A DNA stretch of 29,313 nucleotides, taken from positions 1 through 29,313 of the forward strand of contig JAZDIV010000012.1 of assembly GCA_043804695.1 (NCBI GenBank), written 5' to 3'. Shown piece after piece: positions 17,853-25,000 of this stretch (positions are counted from its first letter, which is position 1; each line of letters opens with the position of its first letter). The position numbers and the translations under genes were made by a program. Below the pieces are notes generated by a model. The model had not been told where the DNA came from and made no database searches. It was given only the letters and a program-made list of their open reading frames with translations. Source of the stretch: PVC group bacterium (GTDB lineage: Bacteria; Auribacterota; Erginobacteria; Erginobacterales; Erginobacteraceae).

Positions 17853-18020
17853 GCGAGATCACGAATGTCTCCCCCGGTGGCTCCCGGGCCCCGGTCTACG
17901 CCGTTTAAATTTCACCGCAGCGGCGGAGGTGGATTCGTCGGGTTTCGGCCTACATCGGGGGTTTTACCGGGTCCTCCGATTTCCCCACTTCTAAAAAATA
18001 AATAAAAAAATAAAAGAGGC

Positions 18021-18054
18021 TTGACAAGCCTTAGTTATGAGCATATGCTCATAA
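18021..18054 (+). promoter_or_regulatory. Sigma70-type promoter with a perfect 20-bp palindromic operator candidate
   Basis: A-rich UP-like tract, TTGACA (18021-18026), 17 bp, TATGCT (18044-18049); TTATGAGCATATGCTCATAA at 18035-18054. Confidence 0.8.
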
Positions 18055-18077
18055 TAAGTAATAAAAATGGAGAAAGT

Positions 18078-18461
18078 ATGCCCAGACCCCTGAAAAGACG
18101 TTGGATCGGCTCCTGGCCCGGGGCGGAGTACTTCAAGCCGCGGGGGATTCCGCTGGCCGATCTGGAAGTCGTCAGCCTCACCGTGGACGAATATGAGGCG
18201 ATCAGGCTTCACGACCGCGAGAGAATGGAGCAGGCTCCGGCGGCGGAAATGATGAGAATCTCCCGGGCCACTTTCGGGAGAATACTCAATTCGGCTCATC
18301 AAAAAATAGCGGAAGCCCTCACCTCCGGAAAAGCCATTCGGATCGGGGGAGGGAGCTTTGAGGTTCTTCCCGGGTGTGGTGCCGGCCCCGGTTTCTGCGG
18401 GAGAGGAAGGGGAAGAAGGTGGAGAGGAGGGGGCGGTAATCCATGTTCAAGGAAGGTATGA
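18078..18461 (+). CDS. DUF134 family HTH protein (putative regulator)
   Basis: MPRPLKRRWI, YFKPRGIP, LTVDEYEAIRLHD, AAEMMRISRATFGRILNSAHQKIAEAL; GGAG before ATG 18078. Confidence 0.9.
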   Translation: MPRPLKRRWIGSWPGAEYFKPRGIPLADLEVVSLTVDEYEAIRLHDRERMEQAPAAEMMRISRATFGRILNSAHQKIAEALTSGKAIRIGGGSFEVLPGCGAGPGFCGRGRGRRWRGGGGNPCSRKV

Positions 18462-18580
18462 TTGATCGAAAAATTTCTTGCCGCGACTGAAAGATCGGCA
18501 GCATGGGTTTCAAAACTAAAAATTTTTCGCTTCGCCCCGATGAAATCGGGGAAGAAAAAATTTTAAAAAGGAGGTGTGTC

Positions 18581-18961
18581 ATGCCAGGATTTGATGGAAC
18601 AGGTCCTATGGGTATAGGATCCCGGACCGGCGGCGGCTTCGGTTTCTGCCCGCCCGGTGCCGTCCCGGTCCCTGATCGCGGCGCCTACCCGTATTTCGGG
18701 GTGGGGCGCGGAGGATATCCCCGGGGCGGCGGAAGAGGCCGCGCCTGGGGCGGCGGCCGCGGCTGGTCGTGGAGGGCATACGCCCGCCCGCCGTATCCCG
18801 CGTCCGGGGCGCCTTACCCGCCGGCTCCCTATTACGATCCGTCTTCCGGTGAAGAACTCGATTTTCTCCGCGACCAGGCGAAGGGTCTCCAGGAGGACCT
18901 GGATTCGATTCGGGACCGCATCGGGGAACTGGAGAAGGAGCCCAAGCCGGCTCAGGAGTAA
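18581..18961 (+). CDS. DUF5320 family protein
   Basis: MPGFDGTGPMG.GSRTGGGFGFC, Gly/Arg-rich middle, C-terminal coiled coil; AGGAGGT before the ATG. Confidence 0.85.
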   Translation: MPGFDGTGPMGIGSRTGGGFGFCPPGAVPVPDRGAYPYFGVGRGGYPRGGGRGRAWGGGRGWSWRAYARPPYPASGAPYPPAPYYDPSSGEELDFLRDQAKGLQEDLDSIRDRIGELEKEPKPAQE

Positions 18962-19169
18962 AGCCTACGCCCCCCGGTTTTCCTTTTGCGGGGATTGACC
19001 CGGAAGGTTTAGGGTTAGTCCCCGTGGGGGAAAAAATAATTTAAAAAGTACTGAATATTCCCGGGAGAAAATTCCGAATTAACTGAAACTGCCGATTGGT
19101 ATAAAGAATATCGAGTAGTCTTCAAAATAAAATTTTTCGCAGAAAAATTTTAAGGAGGAAAATTTTAAA

Positions 19170-19544
19170 ATGAAAGTAGTCGTTTCTTCCACCGGCCCCG
19201 ATCTCTCTTCGGCGACCGATCCGAGGTTCGGAAGATGTTCTTATTTTGTTTTGGTGGATAGCGATTCCATGGAAACGAAATCCTATCCCAATGAGTCGCA
19301 AACGGCCATGGGCGGCGCCGGCATTCAGGCCGGGCAATTCGTCTCCTCGCTCGGCGCGGAAGCGGTGATCACCGGCAATGTCGGTCCCAATGCCGCGCGA
19401 GTTCTGGGTGCCTCCGGTATGAAAATTTATACCGGGGCGGCCGGAACGGCCGAAAAGGCCGTGAATGATTTCAAGGCCGGGAAACTGAAGGAGGTCTCCT
19501 CGGCCACGGTCGGTCCCCCCTTCGGGATGGGGGGCGGGCGGTGA
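19170..19544 (+). CDS. NifB/NifX family (MTH1175/ORP-like) cofactor-binding protein
   Basis: DPRFGRCSYFVLVD, GGAGIQAGQ, VITGNVGPNA. Confidence 0.92.
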   Translation: MKVVVSSTGPDLSSATDPRFGRCSYFVLVDSDSMETKSYPNESQTAMGGAGIQAGQFVSSLGAEAVITGNVGPNAARVLGASGMKIYTGAAGTAEKAVNDFKAGKLKEVSSATVGPPFGMGGGR

Positions 19545-20374
19545 TACTGGCTGTCGCCGGGGGCAAAGGCGGGATCGGCAAAACGTTGATCGCCACCAGT
19601 CTCGCTCTCTCCAACGCTCCCGTTCAATTTCTGGATTGTGATGTTGAAGAACCCAATGCCCACCTTTTTCTTGAAGCCAAAGTTAAAAAGGTGGAACGGG
19701 TTTCGATCACGGTTCCGCATTTCAGGAAATGGAAGGGGGAGGCATGCTATCAGGGAGCCGAATTCTGCCGCTATCAGGCCCTGGCGGTGGTTAAAGATAC
19801 GATGCTGGTTTTCCCCGAGCTCTGCGTTTCCTGCGGGGGATGTTTTCTCCTCTGCCCCGAGGGGGTCCTCGATCCGGTGGATCATCAGGTGGGAGATGTT
19901 AAAACAAGTAAGGGGCGGAACGGCATCGAATTCATATCCGGCGAATTAAAAATCGGCTCCCAGCGGACGACCGAAGTGATCCGGGCGGTCAAAAACCGCC
20001 TGGATGCGGGGGGAAACGCGGTCGTGGACTGCCCGCCGGGCAGCGGCCGTCCGGTGCTGGAATCCCTTCGAGGAAGCGACTTCTGCCTGCTGGTGACCGA
20101 ACCGACGCCCTTTGGCCTCCACGATGTGAAAGGTAATAAAAGATTGCTCGATATTTTAAATATTCCCGGCGGCGTCGTCATCAACCGCGCCGGCGGGGGA
20201 TATGACGGTATCCGGCGCTGGTGTGAGGAGGAAGGTGTCCCGGTTCTGGAGGAGATTCCTTTCGATCTTGAACTGGCCCGCGCTGCCGCCCGGGGCCGGA
20301 CCCTCCCGGACATCGACCCCTCCTGGGCGCGGCGATTCCAGGACCTCTGGGCGGCAATAAAAAGAAAGATTTGA
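19541..20374 (+). CDS. MinD/ParA-superfamily P-loop ATPase with ferredoxin insert
   Basis: GGKGGIGKT, DCDVEEPNAHLF, CVSCGGCFLLCP, DCPPG, LVTEPTPFGLHD. Confidence 0.92.
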   Translation: MILAVAGGKGGIGKTLIATSLALSNAPVQFLDCDVEEPNAHLFLEAKVKKVERVSITVPHFRKWKGEACYQGAEFCRYQALAVVKDTMLVFPELCVSCGGCFLLCPEGVLDPVDHQVGDVKTSKGRNGIEFISGELKIGSQRTTEVIRAVKNRLDAGGNAVVDCPPGSGRPVLESLRGSDFCLLVTEPTPFGLHDVKGNKRLLDILNIPGGVVINRAGGGYDGIRRWCEEEGVPVLEEIPFDLELARAAARGRTLPDIDPSWARRFQDLWAAIKRKI

Positions 20375-20424: not shown

Positions 20425-21303
20425 ATGAAACAACTGGTCATCATCAGCGGTAAGGGAGGAACGGGCAAAACCAGTATCGCCGCCTGTTTCGCTGCCCTGG
20501 AAAAGAAAAGGGGGGCGTTTGCTCCGGTGATCGTCGATTGCGATGTTGATGCTCCCAACCTCCATCTGCTCCTGAAGGGAAAGGTGATCAATTTTGCTCC
20601 TTTTTCCGGACCCGAGCGTGCCGTCATCAACCGCGCCCGCGTCTCCGATCCGGACAAATGCGAAAATTCCTGTGCTTTCAAAGCTATTTCCGGTTTCGAA
20701 GTCGATCCGTTTTCCTGTGTCGGATGCGGAGTCTGTCGCCTGGTGTGCGGGGAGGACGCGGTTCAAATGGCGGAGAGAGAAGCGGGGACCATCTTCGAGA
20801 GCGATACCCCCTACGGAAAATTTTTTCACGCGGAACTTCTTCCCGGCCAGCCCGGTTTCGGCGGACTGGTCACGGCTTTGAGAGTGAAGGGCGAAGCAGA
20901 GGCGCTGCGGCGGACCGATTCGCTTCTCCTGATCGACGGCTCGCCCGGAGTGGGATGCCAGGTCATCGCCAGCCTGACCGGCTGCGACCTCGCCTTGGTG
21001 GTTACCGAACCCGGGAAAGGGGCCTTTCACGATCTCGATCGAATTCACCAGTTGCTCCGCTTCTTCGGCATGAAGGCCCTGGTCATGATCAATCGTTATA
21101 ATCTCGACCGGACTCTCATGAAGGAGATCGAGCGGTACTGCCTGAACCATGATCTGGAAATCGCGGGAAGAATTCCTGTTAACGATCTCTTCCGGCAAGC
21201 GGTTCTGGCCGGAAAACCGGCGGTGGAAATGGGGGACGAAAAACTCAACCCCTGGATCGAAGAAGCATACCGGAACACGAGGCAGGCCCTTTATGGTGTG
21301 TGA
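20425..21303 (+). CDS. Second MinD/ParA-superfamily P-loop ATPase with ferredoxin insert
   Basis: [48 protein letters not shown]. Confidence 0.92.
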
Positions 21304-22195
21304 ATTGAAAAAAGACATCAAGGACAGTTTTGAGCTTCATCGCCGCCAGGGTGAAGATCAGGATCAGTACGAACAACGCCTCCGGATGAAGGAGAACCTC
21401 ACCCGGATCAAGCACAAACTGATGGTGATCAGCGGGAAGGGCGGCGTGGGGAAGACGACGGTGGCGGTTAACCTGGCGGCTGGTTTGGCCCGGGACGGAT
21501 TTGCCGTCGGTTTGCTCGATGCCGACATTCACGGCCCCAATGTCGCCCTCATGCTGGGGAGCGAGGGAAAAAAAATCGAGGGGGGGCGGATCGGAAAGGT
21601 TCGTCCCATCCCGATCCGTCCCGGCCTGGTGGCGATGAGCATGGCCTTCCTCCTCGATCATCCGGGGCAGGCGGTCATCTGGCGCGGCCCCCTCAAGATG
21701 GCGGTGATCAAACAGTTCCTGAGCGATTTCCAATGGGGGGACCTTGATTACCTGGTGGTGGACCTCCCCCCGGGCACGGGCGATGAGCCGCTCAGCATCG
21801 CCCAGCTCATCCCCGAGATGGAGGGGGCGATCATCGTGACCACCCCCCAGGAAGTCGCCCTCCTCGACGCCCGCAAGTGCGTGGATTTCACCCGGCAGCT
21901 CAAGATCCCGGTCCTGGGGCTGGTGGAAAACATGAGCGGCTTTTCCTGCCCGCACTGCGGTAAAGAGATCGATATCTTCAAGAAAGGGGGCGGGGAAAAG
22001 GCCGCGCGGGAACTGGGAGTCCCGTTTCTGGGGCGAATCCCGCTCGATCCCCGTATTGTCGTCAGCAGTGACGAGGGAAAGCCGTTTCTGGATCAGCACC
22101 CCGATTCCGAAGCCGCCCGGAGCCTGAATGCCATCATTAAGAGCATCGTCGGGCGGACGGAAGAAAAACAGAATAACTCAGATCGGTGTTCATAA
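21293..22195 (+). CDS. Mrp/NBP35 (ApbC) Fe-S carrier ATPase
   Basis: [54 protein letters not shown]. Start uncertain; ATG 21293 chosen. Confidence 0.95.
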
Positions 22196-22220
22196 ATAAA
22201 ATTTTACGGAGGAAAATTTT

Positions 22221-22619
22221 ATGAAAATTGCCATTTCTACCGACAGCGGCCAGGTTTCCGCTCACTTCGGGCGCTGCCCCGAGTTCACGGTGGTCGGGAT
22301 CGAGGACGGAAAAGTGATTTCACAAGAGGTGATCGCCAATCCCGGCCATCATCCCGGTTTCCTGCCCAAGTTCTTATCTGAGCGCGGTATCGGAGCCATC
22401 GTCGCCGGGGGGATGGGGCTCCGGGCTCAAGCTCTCTTTGATGAAATGGGGATGAAGGCGGTCATGGGAATCTCGGGTCCGCTTGACGAGGTCGTCGGGA
22501 AGCTCGCGTCCGGGACCTTGCAGGGGGGGGAGTCGCTCTGCCTCCCGGGAGCGGGAAAGGGCTACGGTCTGGACAAAACCGAATGCGACCATCCGGATGA
22601 AAGTGAAACCGCCGATTAA
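22221..22619 (+). CDS. Second NifB/NifX family cofactor-binding protein
   Basis: MKIAIST, VSAHFGRCPEF, NPGHHPGFLP, GGMG.RA. Confidence 0.92.
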   Translation: MKIAISTDSGQVSAHFGRCPEFTVVGIEDGKVISQEVIANPGHHPGFLPKFLSERGIGAIVAGGMGLRAQALFDEMGMKAVMGISGPLDEVVGKLASGTLQGGESLCLPGAGKGYGLDKTECDHPDESETAD

Positions 22620-22727
22620 GCTGATGATGCGGATTATTTTTTATCAGATTTTTAATTTTCCAGAGGAAAATTAAAAATAATAACTGGGCATATCTAAATA
22701 GAATTCCTGAATAGGTTGGTGAGATTG

Positions 22728-23183
22728 ATGAATGAGGAAAAAGACATTGAAATAGTGGCGCAAGAAATCCAGGAAGCGATCCTGAAAGAGGCCCGGAAGA
22801 TCTATTCCCCTAAAGTCATTGAGTTATCTCAATATCCCGGGAATCTGGGTGTGATTGAGAAGGCCAACGGGTTCGGGATTATCAAAGGGATCTGCGGGGA
22901 TACGATGAAGATTTATCTCCGGATCGTCCGCGGCCGGGTCAAAGAGGCGAAATTCGAGACCGACGGCTGCGGCCCGACGCTGGCCTGCGGGAGCGCGATT
23001 ACCGGGATGGCAAGGGGAAAGACTCTAAAGCAAGTGCTGAAACTATCACCGTCCGACGTGCTGAAAGAGCTCGGAGGTTTGCCCGAATCCCATCTTCATT
23101 GTTCGATCCTCGCCGTTAACGCACTCCACAGCGCCGTCGCCAACTATCTGTTTTTAAATCAGGATCAGCCGAAACCGGAATAA
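22728..23183 (+). CDS. NifU/IscU-like Fe-S scaffold protein
   Basis: YSPKVIEL, GICGDTMKIYL, FETDGCGPTLACGS, LGGLPESHLHCSILA; three conserved cysteines present. Confidence 0.9.
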   Translation: MNEEKDIEIVAQEIQEAILKEARKIYSPKVIELSQYPGNLGVIEKANGFGIIKGICGDTMKIYLRIVRGRVKEAKFETDGCGPTLACGSAITGMARGKTLKQVLKLSPSDVLKELGGLPESHLHCSILAVNALHSAVANYLFLNQDQPKPE

Positions 23184-23224
23184 GCGTAATCAGTTTCCAG
23201 TCCATTGAATAGGTATCACAAACA

Positions 23225-23293
23225 GGAGTAATGGAGTAGTGGAGTGATGGGGAATCAGTCAATATTCCGATATTCCATTATTCCAACATTCCA
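23225..23293. repeat. Imperfect hairpin built from 8-bp tandem repeats
   Basis: GGAGTAAT GGAGTAGT GGAGTGAT opposite CAATATTC CGATATTC CATTATTC CAACATTC; related octamers at about 20377-20409. Confidence 0.65.
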
Positions 23294-23305
23294 AGGAGGT
23301 TGAAG

Positions 23306-23545
23306 ATGCCATCAGGAGATGGAACAGGACCGAGGGGCCAGGGCCCCGGGACGGGAAGAGGAATGGGAGGAAGAGGCATGGGGGGAGGCGGGGGAAGAGG
23401 CAGGATGGGCGGAAACCGCCCCGGCTCCGGACCGGCAGGAGAATGCGTCTGCCCGGGTTGCGGAGCCCGGGTGACGCATCAGGTCGGCGTTCCCTGCTAT
23501 GAGGTTAAATGCCCCAAGTGCGGCGCGGCCATGGCGCGAGCCTGA
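23306..23545 (+). CDS. Small DUF5320-like Gly/Arg-rich protein with C-terminal Cys-rich metal-binding domain
   Basis: MPSGDGTGPRGQGPGTGRGMG; CVCPGCG...PCYEVKCPKCG; AGGAGGT before ATG 23306. Confidence 0.85.
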   Translation: MPSGDGTGPRGQGPGTGRGMGGRGMGGGGGRGRMGGNRPGSGPAGECVCPGCGARVTHQVGVPCYEVKCPKCGAAMARA

Positions 23546-23561
23546 GCAGCGGGATCTTTAG

Positions 23562-24203
23562 GTGCGACCAGTGAAGAATGGCAACCCATTCCGCAGGTTC
23601 GCGTCCGATTACGATTACTGGTATGAGCCCAACCGGGCCGCCTATCTATCCGAGCTGGAAGCGATAAAACGGGTATTCCATCCGTCCTTCCGCGGCCTCG
23701 AAGTCGGTGTCGGGACCGCGCGCTTTGCCGCCCCGCTCAAAGTGAAGTGGGGAATGGATCCGGCCCGGGAAATGCTTGAACTCGCCCGGGCGCGGGGTGT
23801 GAGCGTGGTTCAAGGTCACGGCGAGTCACTCCCCTTCGCGGCCGGGGTTTGTGACTGCGTCTTGCTGATTTTCACTCTCTGTTTCGTCCCTGCTCCGGAG
23901 AGATTAATCGATGAGGCGCGAAGAGTCCTCGGAAAAGGCGGCTCTGTGATTGTGGGGATTATCGATAAAGAAAGTTTTTTAGGCGAAATCTATGAAACTC
24001 GAAAGAGCCAAAGCAAGTTTTACGGTTCGGCCCGATTTTTTTCCGTGCCGGAAGTTTTAAATCTTCTTCCGGAAAATAGATGGAGAGATATAGAAATATT
24101 CCAAACCATTTTCAATTCGCCGGAGGAGATAGCAGAGGTTCAAATTCCCAAAAATGGATATGGAGAAGGGGGGTTTGTCGTAATAAGGGCCACAAAATCC
24201 TGA
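23562..24203 (+). CDS. Class I SAM-dependent methyltransferase
   Basis: LEVGVGTARFA, GMDPAREML, GHGESLPF, TLCFV, EARRVL..GG. Confidence 0.9.
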   Translation: MRPVKNGNPFRRFASDYDYWYEPNRAAYLSELEAIKRVFHPSFRGLEVGVGTARFAAPLKVKWGMDPAREMLELARARGVSVVQGHGESLPFAAGVCDCVLLIFTLCFVPAPERLIDEARRVLGKGGSVIVGIIDKESFLGEIYETRKSQSKFYGSARFFSVPEVLNLLPENRWRDIEIFQTIFNSPEEIAEVQIPKNGYGEGGFVVIRATKS

Positions 24204-24244: not shown

Positions 24245-25000
24245 ATGAAACTCCTAAAAGAAATATTGACGACCTTGCCGGAGGGACATTCGACACAAGA
24301 GATATACATCGGCGCTTTTGATACGGTGGTGAAGAGCCTGAGATGGGGCATATCCTCCACCTTCCGTGATCCCGTTGGCGAAAATAAATCGGCCTGGATA
24401 AAAGGAGCGGGGGAACTCATCGGCCGTCCGGCGCTCGATCTCGCCCGGTACGTTCTTTCCGATAATCTGCTCGAGGCTTCCCTGGGGATGGCGGCGATCA
24501 ACTCGCTTCTCCATACGGAAGGAATCGCTTTCCATGAGATCAACGCCGCCCGGATTGTACGGGAACACGGGAAAGGGAAAAATGTCGCGGTCGTCGGCGA
24601 CTTTCCATTTCTGGAAAAGATCCGGAGCGAGGTGAACAATCTGTGGGTCATAAGCAGGAGACCCTGGGAGGGGGAGGAGGGGGTGAAGGAAGCCCGGTCA
24701 ATTCTTCCCCGGGCCGATGTCGTCGCTCTCACCGGCAGCTCGTTCATCAATCATACCGCCGAAGTCCTCCTTTCCCTGTGCCCCCGGGCCTATACGTTGA
24801 TTCTGGGTCCCTCAACGCCGCTTTCCCCGGTGCTGTTTCGTTACGGGGCGGACGCTATCTGCGGCACGCTGATCGACGATCCGGACCGGGCTCTGCCCTT
24901 TATCCGGCAGGGCGCTTCCTTCCGTCACATTCAGGGGCTTCGTCTGGTAACGATGTTTAAAGATGGGGTCCCCGATGACAACGATATGCGCTCTGGTTGA
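24245..25000 (+). CDS. DUF364 family (Rossmann-like, putative heavy-metal chelation) protein
   Basis: LEASLGMAAINS, KNVAVVGDFP, ADVVALTGSSFINHT, LGPSTPLSPVLF.YGAD. Confidence 0.88.
   Translation: MKLLKEILTTLPEGHSTQEIYIGAFDTVVKSLRWGISSTFRDPVGENKSAWIKGAGELIGRPALDLARYVLSDNLLEASLGMAAINSLLHTEGIAFHEINAARIVREHGKGKNVAVVGDFPFLEKIRSEVNNLWVISRRPWEGEEGVKEARSILPRADVVALTGSSFINHTAEVLLSLCPRAYTLILGPSTPLSPVLFRYGADAICGTLIDDPDRALPFIRQGASFRHIQGLRLVTMFKDGVPDDNDMRSG

Follow-up and report, generated by a model that had tools for sequence, protein, structure and literature searches.

We consider it quite likely that the DUF134 protein encoded in the DNA studied here, probably as a dimer, binds the 20-bp palindrome TTATGAGCATATGCTCATAA lying over its promoter and represses both its own gene and the orp-like operon that follows. 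The window, as we call the whole stretch of DNA analysed, is 29,313 nucleotides long (contig JAZDIV010000012.1 of assembly GCA_043804695.1, PVC group bacterium, family Erginobacteraceae). Autorepression of a sigma70 promoter by DUF134, as the first-pass annotation had put forward, is supported by the comparisons presented below, from which we infer both the binding and the sign of the regulation.

The palindrome and the DUF134 protein

The elements at the head of the cluster are listed below, with their positions in the window.

17993..18015, + strand: A-rich tract, UP-element-like in sequence and putatively in function
18021..18026, + strand: -35 hexamer TTGACA, from the sequence and a promoter scan
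18035..18054, no strand: predicted DUF134 operator, the 20-bp palindrome TTATGAGCATATGCTCATAA, identical to the consensus of the position weight matrix (PWM) described below
18044..18049, + strand: -10 hexamer TATGCT, within the predicted operator, after a 17-nt spacer
18069..18072, + strand: ribosome-binding site GGAG, 5 nt ahead of the ATG
18078..18461, + strand: DUF134 gene, 127 aa, from Pfam (PF02001), an AlphaFold2 model and fold searches

The palindrome consists of two 10-nt arms that are 100% complementary, with zero gap between them. It covers TATGCT, which lies 17 nt past TTGACA, and ends 23 nt before the ATG of the DUF134 gene; on all these points the sequence confirms what the first-pass annotation had described. 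The pair TTGACA-17-TATGCT is recovered by the promoter scan with 10 of 12 matches, its -10 box agreeing with the consensus at four of six positions, and relative to this promoter the predicted operator extends from about -21 to -2. TTATGAGCATATGCTCATAA is the sole perfect 20-bp palindrome of the window, with 0.035 expected per shuffled window; at up to 3 mismatches it has no second match in the window and none in 100 shuffles, and at up to 4 mismatches it is unique in the 2.97-Mb genome of 155 contigs. Perfect 20-bp palindromes number 71 in the genome as a whole, and many are G+C-rich and resemble hairpins; palindromy alone is therefore not our argument, and what counts is the uniqueness and the conservation of this particular sequence. 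A genome-wide scan for further sites, suggested earlier and run here with the PWM, returned the single strong site at TTATGAGCATATGCTCATAA (34.7 bits) and no additional strong one, the next best reaching 17.2 bits; these weaker matches were treated as chance. With one strong site genome-wide, the regulon in this genome would be a single cluster.

The surroundings of the site are shared with same-family relatives (loci L003-L005, L117 and L118), in which A-tracts followed by GGGG and TTGACA precede the same promoter and the 8-nt distance from the -35 box to the site recurs. A second palindrome, AGGCTTGACAAGCCT (18017-18031), was considered as a part of the operator and rejected, being absent in L004 and L005 and present in L003 only as a shorter CTTGA...TCAAG. 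There is also a smaller hairpin-like repeat that overlaps the -35 box on the minus strand. Searches of the window gave no match to Rfam families and found no tRNA or tmRNA.

The protein, encoded by the single DUF134 gene of the genome, matches PF02001 with 75.6 bits against a gathering cut-off of 27 (E 4.6e-21, profile positions 6-96 of 98), and is laid out as an N-terminal MPRPxKxR arm, a helix-turn-helix like that of sigma-70 region 4, and a disordered Arg/Gly-rich tail with three cysteines. It carries the signature of the family, namely the MPRPxKxR arm together with an E-A-x-R-L ... S-R-x-T helix-turn-helix; in an alignment of 104 sequences, R8, P21, E38, E40, R43, L44, M59 and T65 are invariant and conservation is 90% or higher for R3, P4, S62, R63 and F66; the window protein has every one of these residues. 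The AlphaFold2 model (pLDDT 86.3) has a three-helix sigma-4-like core (helices 36-47, 52-58 and 63-83) flanked by short N- and C-terminal strands, with residues 100-127 disordered. Structural relatives are found for the core only, i.e. sigma region 4, the DNA-binding domain of DeoR, and EnfR: with the whole domain Foldseek returns nothing at E <=0.001, and VIA-align returns nothing at Z >=8, its matches being confined to residues 15-85. The family (UPF0251, COG1342) has 3600 cluster representatives at E <=0.001 among 1.84 billion, and is matched also in the archaeal controls Methanocaldococcus jannaschii and Methanosarcina acetivorans; the best NCBI model for the window protein bears the name 'hypothetical protein'. 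As for cysteines, many members have an N-terminal Cys or CxxC...CPxC extension, and the close relatives at L003 and L004 have zero cysteine, which makes an intrinsic thiol or Fe-S sensor unlikely in the clade of the window and points to sensing by a partner protein, perhaps NifX-like or DUF5320, instead.

Conservation of the site and its link with DUF134

DUF134 loci were taken from two sources, the window genome with 60 relatives (61 genomes, 26 of them with a homologue) and species-representative genomes (80 loci under about 15 phylum-level labels), and pooled into 107 non-duplicate DUF134 genes. In an unbiased count of 8-mers from -120 to -1, GCATATGC ranks first, occurring in 56 of the 107 DUF134 regions and in 0 of 287 same-locus control windows. 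The PWM, which was seeded with the window site, iterated and trained on the sequences that it scored, and for which the 8-mer count serves as the unbiased control, exceeds 12 bits in 83 of the 107 upstream regions (median of all 107, 25.3 bits), with a maximum of 7.7 bits in 375 control windows and 9.8 bits in 535 shuffles. With 83 of 107 against 0 of 375 control windows, a ATGAGCATATGCTCAT-like palindrome is thus conserved upstream of DUF134 orthologues, which is the outcome that had been named in advance as support for the operator.

The consensus of the 83 sites is TTATGAGCATATGCTCATAA, the same as the site in the window; six of them, that of the window counted, are identical to it, 18 are perfect 20-bp palindromes, and the most conserved columns are the central CATATG. 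Loci usually have a single site, which ends 6-115 nt (median 19) upstream of the start codon; tandem double sites are found at L058, L239, L240, L242 and L243. The 24 DUF134 genes without a site within 160 nt are mostly Planctomycetota genes directly behind another gene. At L054, L103 and G018 a site lies 0.8-6 kb upstream, and that of G018 heads the operon that ends in the DUF134 gene. In addition, sites are present on plasmids of Escherichia, Citrobacter, Proteus, Salinivibrio, Peptoclostridium, Acetoanaerobium, Treponema and Phocaeicola; the module of pKTa005_1 is found in 1 of 5426 complete E. coli genomes at megablast sensitivity. The Phocaeicola site abuts a TAtcTTTG box, which we take to be the -7 promoter type of Bacteroidota.

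The position of the site relative to the promoter is informative as well. A TTGACA-like hexamer (at least 5 of 6) stands within 35 nt upstream of 74 of the 83 sites, exactly so in 57, and nine sites are without such a box. Counted from the -35 box, the distance to the start of the site is 0-3 nt in 33 cases, 8-9 nt in 7 (the window included) and 15-28 nt in 34, and depending on this register the -10 hexamer sits in the right arm (CATAAT/TATAAT), in the centre (TATGCT) or in the left arm (TATTAT). Since its position against the -35 box varies, the palindrome is not itself the -10 element; it is an element of its own, distinct from the -10 box, that always overlaps the -10/start-site region. Such a placement would be expected of a repressor site; an RNA hairpin would not fit it, as no transcript would include both arms.

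We then relate the site to the protein, from either side. A strict pattern, TWATKVRCATATGYBHATWA, is matched by 17 of the 61 genomes, exactly one time each; the 61 genomes are mutual relatives and hence not independent samples. All 17 are among the 26 with DUF134, the 35 genomes without DUF134 have 0 matches, and so does the reversed pattern, taken as control, in all 61. In the reverse direction, the exact 20-mer was scanned for in metagenome contigs and met in at least 120 stretches, of which 80 loci were taken. The link holds here too: DUF134 lies within 1 kb of the site in 67 of the 80 loci, and in 64 it starts 6-68 nt (median 19) after the site. Behind the 13 sites with no DUF134 within 1 kb there are genes for DUF5320 (two loci), a NifX-like protein, an MBL-fold protein, a pyridine-nucleotide disulfide oxidoreductase, an OrpR-like PAS/sigma54 activator and a nucleotidyl transferase (one), the rest being without a Pfam match.

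Residues of the recognition helix go together with bases of the half-site. When residue 68 is compared with half-site base 5, all 58 cases with Arg have G, all 20 with Asn have T, and all 4 with Lys have T or A; His62/Ile66/Ser67 is accompanied by CA at bases 6-7 in 7 of 7. Such tip counts are inflated by shared descent. By helix class, SR(Q/A/P)TFGR corresponds to the half-site TTATG(A/G)GC, SRQTFG(N/K) to TTATT(A/G)GC, VHRSTISR to TTATGCAC and ISRPTFSR to T(T/A)ATGAAC. On a protein tree built without the helix columns, residue 68 and base 5 each change about four times, with supported branches yielding one independent pair, and at such numbers a sign test cannot become significant. Out of sample, Arg is present in 64 of 64 parsable helices beside the exact metagenome site (4 are unparsable), and the named plasmid loci fit the residue-base rule in 7 of 7 cases. 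Among the plasmid pairs, Escherichia, Citrobacter, Proteus, Salinivibrio and Acetoanaerobium have Asn/T and Peptoclostridium has Lys/T, with Ser-Arg and GAAC in Phocaeicola and Ala with T in Treponema. Besides, R63 and R68 of the window protein align with R34 and R39 of DeoR in a sequence profile match, and these two DeoR residues make base contacts in the DeoR-operator crystal structure, according to passages of PMC11229326.

Genes behind the site

Downstream of the DUF134 gene there are nine more genes on the same strand.

18581..18961, + strand: DUF5320 gene, with its start at ATG 18581 after AGGAGG and not at 18503, since Pfam aligns the longer ORF from its residue 27 onwards
19170..19544, + strand: first NifX/NifB-like (Nitro_FeMo-Co) gene, Pfam E 3.3e-21
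19541..20374, + strand: CbiA/MinD-type ATPase with a 4Fe-4S ferredoxin insert, from Pfam
20425..21303, + strand: second CbiA/MinD-type ATPase with a 4Fe-4S ferredoxin insert, from Pfam
21149..22195 (longest ORF), + strand: Mrp/NBP35 P-loop ATPase, PF10609 E 7.9e-98
22221..22619, + strand: second NifX-like gene, similar to the MrpORP C-terminal domain (NF041136 positions 265-363, E 5.2e-26)
22716..23183, + strand: NifU_N/IscU-type scaffold gene, from Pfam
23562..24203, + strand: SAM-dependent methyltransferase gene, from Pfam
24245..25000, + strand: DUF4213/DUF364 gene, the last on the strand of the cluster, from Pfam

The true start of the Mrp/NBP35 gene is probably later than 21149, its Pfam match running from residue 87. 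The content of the cluster is that of orp genes, i.e. NifX-like proteins, two MinD/CbiA ATPases with ferredoxin inserts, and MrpORP, which in the window is split into the Mrp gene (21149-22195) and the NifX-like gene (22221-22619). Inside the cluster there are intergenic gaps of 120, 208 and 378 nt and a TGGTATAAA box at 19097-19105, and because of these internal promoters are possible and the control of the distal genes from the operator is uncertain. Relatives (L009 and L011) have a methyltransferase gene of the same family as that in the window, placed behind those for DUF134 and a DnaJ-domain protein.

In genus g2, of the same family as the window, DUF134 has acquired a zinc-ribbon-like tail and lies beside DnaJ-domain and methyltransferase genes, and extra sites are present elsewhere in these genomes. 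In genomes G005 and G006 (which hold loci L112 and L117) they stand before DUF5320-NifX-CbiA. In G007 one site lies ahead of NifX-CbiA with an unassigned gene in between (L115) and another directly before a DUF364/DUF4213 gene followed by an oxidoreductase (L116), and in G002 a site precedes an unassigned 127-aa gene; L117 and L118 (genomes G005 and G002) keep the window layout of GGGGG-TTGACA-8 nt-site. With an extra site before each, what is one cluster in the window corresponds to separate operons in g2.

Overall, 42 of the 83 loci have a NifX-like gene as the first or second ORF downstream. DUF134 is fused to a NifX-like domain in Mailhella (L072, by Pfam), and the genes on the Treponema and Phocaeicola plasmids, from a reading of their translations, look like DUF134-NifX-like fusions as well. 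In other lineages the genes behind the site include an ArsP-type permease with thioredoxin, a CoA-disulfide reductase-rhodanese with a C_GCAxxG_C_C protein, DUF302 with an MBL-fold hydrolase, and a SLAC1-type channel, which hints at a sulfur or redox theme. No other regulator gene consistently adjoins the site.

Repression, its alternatives and known systems

In the mechanism that we propose, two DUF134 subunits, each with its sigma-70 region 4-like helix-turn-helix, would sit on the half-sites TTATGAGCAT, a dimer being suggested by the symmetry of the site. Bound over the core promoter, DUF134 would keep RNA polymerase off, so that the genes for DUF134, DUF5320, the NifX-like protein, the two MinD/ferredoxin ATPases, Mrp, the other NifX-like protein, IscU, the methyltransferase and DUF364 would be off. 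A signal would then release DUF134, and our guess for it is a metal-sulfur cluster, sulfur or redox status. Tentatively, and with considerable doubt, we suggest a two-part sensor in which DUF134 would be the DNA-binding half and a NifX/NafY-type cofactor-binding neighbour, fused to it in Mailhella, Treponema and Phocaeicola, the ligand half; whether DUF134 occupies TTATGAGCATATGCTCATAA would depend on whether the NifX-like partner is loaded with a Mo/Fe-S or related metal-sulfur cluster, or else with a persulfide-type species.

An unlikely alternative is that DUF134 binds the palindrome as an activator or dual regulator, for example by remodelling a promoter with an imperfect -10 box. The four-of-six match of TATGCT and the tandem sites at five loci would be in line with it, and MerR-type regulators, which bind between -35 and -10, can activate. 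However, MerR-type regulation needs an over-long spacer of 19-20 nt and that of the window is 17 nt, and an activator of fixed geometry would not tolerate three registers against the -35 box, with 34 of the 83 sites covering the -10 box and the predicted start. Very unlikely, in our judgement, is the view that the palindrome is a real operator of a different protein, DUF134 being merely a regulated gene that travels with the site. One may hold for it that 13 of the 80 exact sites have no DUF134 nearby, that the binding by DUF134 is deduced from sequence, and that the residue-base covariation goes back to few independent events; yet the strict pattern is missing from all 35 relatives without DUF134 and occurs once each in 17 of the 26 with it, the half-site variants track the recognition-helix residues in three separate classes and in the out-of-sample sets, no other regulator gene is consistently adjacent, and the module retains the site even when plasmid-borne in distant hosts.

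It is extremely improbable that the palindrome is an RNA hairpin or terminator, an unusual promoter element or a product of chance, even with the 71 palindromes of the genome, many of them hairpin-like, and the smaller minus-strand repeat over the -35 box counted in favour of this. With a -10 box within the site or to its right, transcription would begin in or beyond the site and the full hairpin would never be transcribed; moreover, the conserved centre CATATG would have to be the loop, there is no spacer between the arms, and Rfam gives no match. The varying distance to the -35 box argues against a promoter element, and chance is excluded by the mismatch scan with shuffles, the 8-mer count and the PWM controls. 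Repression by DUF134 from a palindromic operator is the reading that we retain.

On this reading DUF134 gains a DNA target, a probable role as autoregulated repressor, and a core regulon of NifX-like/orange-protein, DUF5320 and Mrp-type carriers, to which some lineages would add sulfur and redox genes. A search of open-access full text, judged by titles and the beginnings of abstracts, gave no work on the function of DUF134, UPF0251, COG1342 or PF02001; the name UPF0251 occurs in a mutation table of one paper. In the same body of text the 14- and 16-base cores of the motif are absent, shorter words matching primers and unrelated sites. As far as the open-access literature shows, no operator or regulon had been proposed for DUF134 before. 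The mechanism itself, an autoregulated helix-turn-helix repressor on a palindromic operator, is ordinary; the novelty lies in the family, in a conservation of unusual strictness across phyla, and in the connection with orp-type cluster carriers. The operator is kept nearly letter for letter across many phyla. Its presence on plasmids of Escherichia, Citrobacter and Proteus as well brings the prediction within reach of routine gel-shift and reporter assays, and the rule relating Arg/Asn to G/T offers a specificity swap. If the two-part sensor is true, it would be the first transcription switch that uses the nitrogenase-cofactor-carrier fold as a sensor, and the orp-type carriers would be tied to sulfur/redox stress genes that share the operator (CoA-disulfide reductase-rhodanese, MBL-fold hydrolase and SLAC1/TauE-type exporters).

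Among solved structures, the best sequence match to DUF134 is DeoR of Bacillus subtilis (SorC family; PDB 7BHY and 8R7Y), with a profile E of 1.5e-5 over EAxRL...SRxTxSR and a helix-turn-helix core that superposes with an rmsd of 0.6 A over 40 residues at 38% identity. DeoR is a repressor whose DNA-binding-domain dimers bind inverted repeats at its promoter. In contrast to DUF134, it has a large C-terminal effector domain for sugar phosphates, forms a tetramer and uses a 39-bp composite operator; DUF134 has 127 aa, no effector domain, extra N- and C-terminal strands, and a compact 20-bp palindrome of unrelated sequence. Of the two features of the SorC/DeoR family, the helix-turn-helix is present and the C-terminal effector domain of about 250 aa is absent (Pfam gives DUF134 only), so DUF134 resembles the DNA-binding domain of DeoR but is not a member of the SorC family.

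By fold, the best match to DUF134 residues 15-85 is region 4 of sigma-70/ECF factors (VIA-align Z 6.0-7.2, Foldseek probabilities up to 1.0), and several DUF134 members have sub-threshold Pfam Sigma70_r4_2 matches. DUF134 differs from sigma factors in having neither region 2 nor region 3, the matches being below the family cut-offs, and in its symmetric site over the -10 box, where a sigma factor, as a monomer in RNA polymerase, reads a -35 element. It is not placed in the sigma-70 family: there is no region 2 match, and the NCBIfam sigma70-ECF model scores 20.8 bits against a cut-off of 42.9, over its last 49 positions. A third relative of the core is EnfR (TON_1525, Tfx family) of Thermococcus onnurineus (PDB 8HNO; Z 6.6, rmsd 1.4 A over 52 residues, 27% identity), which passages of PMC10570040 describe as a small dimer on a pseudo-palindrome in the promoter, with an N-terminal loop that aids DNA recognition. 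EnfR is of another family, with an N-terminal helix-turn-helix followed by an alpha+beta 'note-head' dimerisation domain and a 36-bp archaeal site of unrelated sequence; only the helix-turn-helix aligns (model 31-83 to chain 4-55), the order of elements differs, and there is no sequence match at E <=1.

For the genes under control, the system to compare is that of Desulfovibrio vulgaris Hildenborough, whose orp operons depend on sigma54, IHF and the redox-sensing activator OrpR binding GGGCGYRTTTTGCGCCC, according to passages of PMC8359166, PMC3897727 and PMC4641369; the first-pass annotation had already cited this sigma54/OrpR control, in agreement with PMC8359166 and PMC4641369. The genes are of the same kind (NifX-like/orange protein, MinD-ferredoxin ATPases and MrpORP), but there an enhancer-binding activator works at sigma54 promoters, whereas the window has a sigma70-type promoter with an overlapping predicted operator. 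In the window the OrpR box GGGCGYRTTTTGCGCCC has 0 matches at up to 3 mismatches, and at the cluster head, on the + strand of 17853-18077, there is no sigma54 -24/-12-like match, the whole window giving 6 weak matches against a shuffle mean of 8.5. The two systems can coexist, as shown by an OrpR-like gene after DUF134-NifX at L035 and L073; at L162 the exact predicted operator stands ahead of an OrpR-like gene. Anaerobes would thus have at least two unrelated controls of orp-type genes, the sigma54 activator OrpR and the sigma70-promoter operator proposed here for DUF134.

Copies of the proposed operator, OrpR-like genes and plasmids

The exact operator, the perfect 20-bp palindrome proposed as the DUF134 site, is also found on a metagenome contig (L162, 1001-1020), with TTGACA before it and an OrpR-like PAS/sigma54-activator gene after it. 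At two DUF134 loci (L035 and L073), the gene order DUF134-NifX is also followed by an OrpR-like gene. In some organisms, the DUF134 and OrpR controls of orp genes may be wired in series. A variant operator, ATGAACCATGGTTCAT, with the centre CCATGG rather than CATATG, lies in two tandem copies upstream of the DUF134 gene of a Leptospirales MAG (L058), and the DUF134 helix beside these sites reads ISRPTFTR. A tandem pair of DUF134 genes occurs on one contig of another genome (G065:C233:968-1614).

DUF134-NifB/NifX pairs are frequent on plasmids, with 69 records in Klebsiella, 57 in Citrobacter and 17 in Escherichia; besides the Citrobacter freundii plasmid NZ_CP058319.1 (L246), there are 197 other plasmid records. 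On pM92-1, the pair adjoins genes for a TauE/SafE exporter, a PaaI thioesterase and Dps, as well as an ArsR/SmtB regulator gene with an FAD oxidoreductase, and two Asn-type sites (T at half-site base 5) lie ahead of a gene of the pair.

Further elements of the cluster and the genome

The smaller features of the cluster, and the palindromes recurring in the window's genome (G000), are as follows.

Features of the cluster and recurring palindromes of G000
18017-18031: second small palindrome AGGCTTGACAAGCCT, centred on the -35 hexamer
18555-18571, 19142-19158, 22196-22212: A/T-rich leader AAAATTTTA(A/C)GGAGG, immediately 5' of start codons
18962-19169 (208 nt) and 23184-23561 (378 nt): intra-cluster gaps
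18989-19024: hairpin within the first gap
19097-19105: extended -10-like TGGTATAAA within the first gap
G000: palindrome of TTTCGATCGAAA type, 7 copies
G000: palindrome CCTGCCTGCCGGCAGGCAGG, 5 copies
G000: palindrome of CCGATTTAT..ATAAATCGG type, 4 copies
G000: palindrome of GAGGCTGATCAGCCTC type, 3 copies

The promoter/terminator scan of the window marks the minus strand of AGGCTTGACAAGCCT as terminator-like, and this palindrome is not conserved in the relatives L004 and L005. The leader stands ahead of DUF5320 and of each of the two NifX-like genes (three matches observed against 0.17 expected), and one copy belongs to a perfect 11-nt inverted repeat at 19128-19152. Rfam gives no match in the two cluster gaps; an internal promoter ahead of the NifX-like gene is possible in the first. 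The further perfect 20-bp palindromes of G000 (contigs C43, C46, C63, C114, C142, C152 and others) may be additional operators or repeat elements.

DUF5320-like tails and a split MrpORP

In six DUF134 proteins (L013-L015, L029, L030 and L047), the C-terminal tail has an MPRGDGTGP...GPCGCG stretch resembling the DUF5320 N-terminus; in the window DUF5320 is a gene of its own. A Pfam scan of all six gave a sole match, for L015, below threshold (E 3.9e-4). The tail of the window's DUF134, PGCGAGPGFCGRGRG, is similar to theirs in composition. MrpORP is one protein in NCBI model NF041136, while in the window it is divided between two genes, one for Mrp/NBP35 and one for a NifX-like protein (21149-22619).
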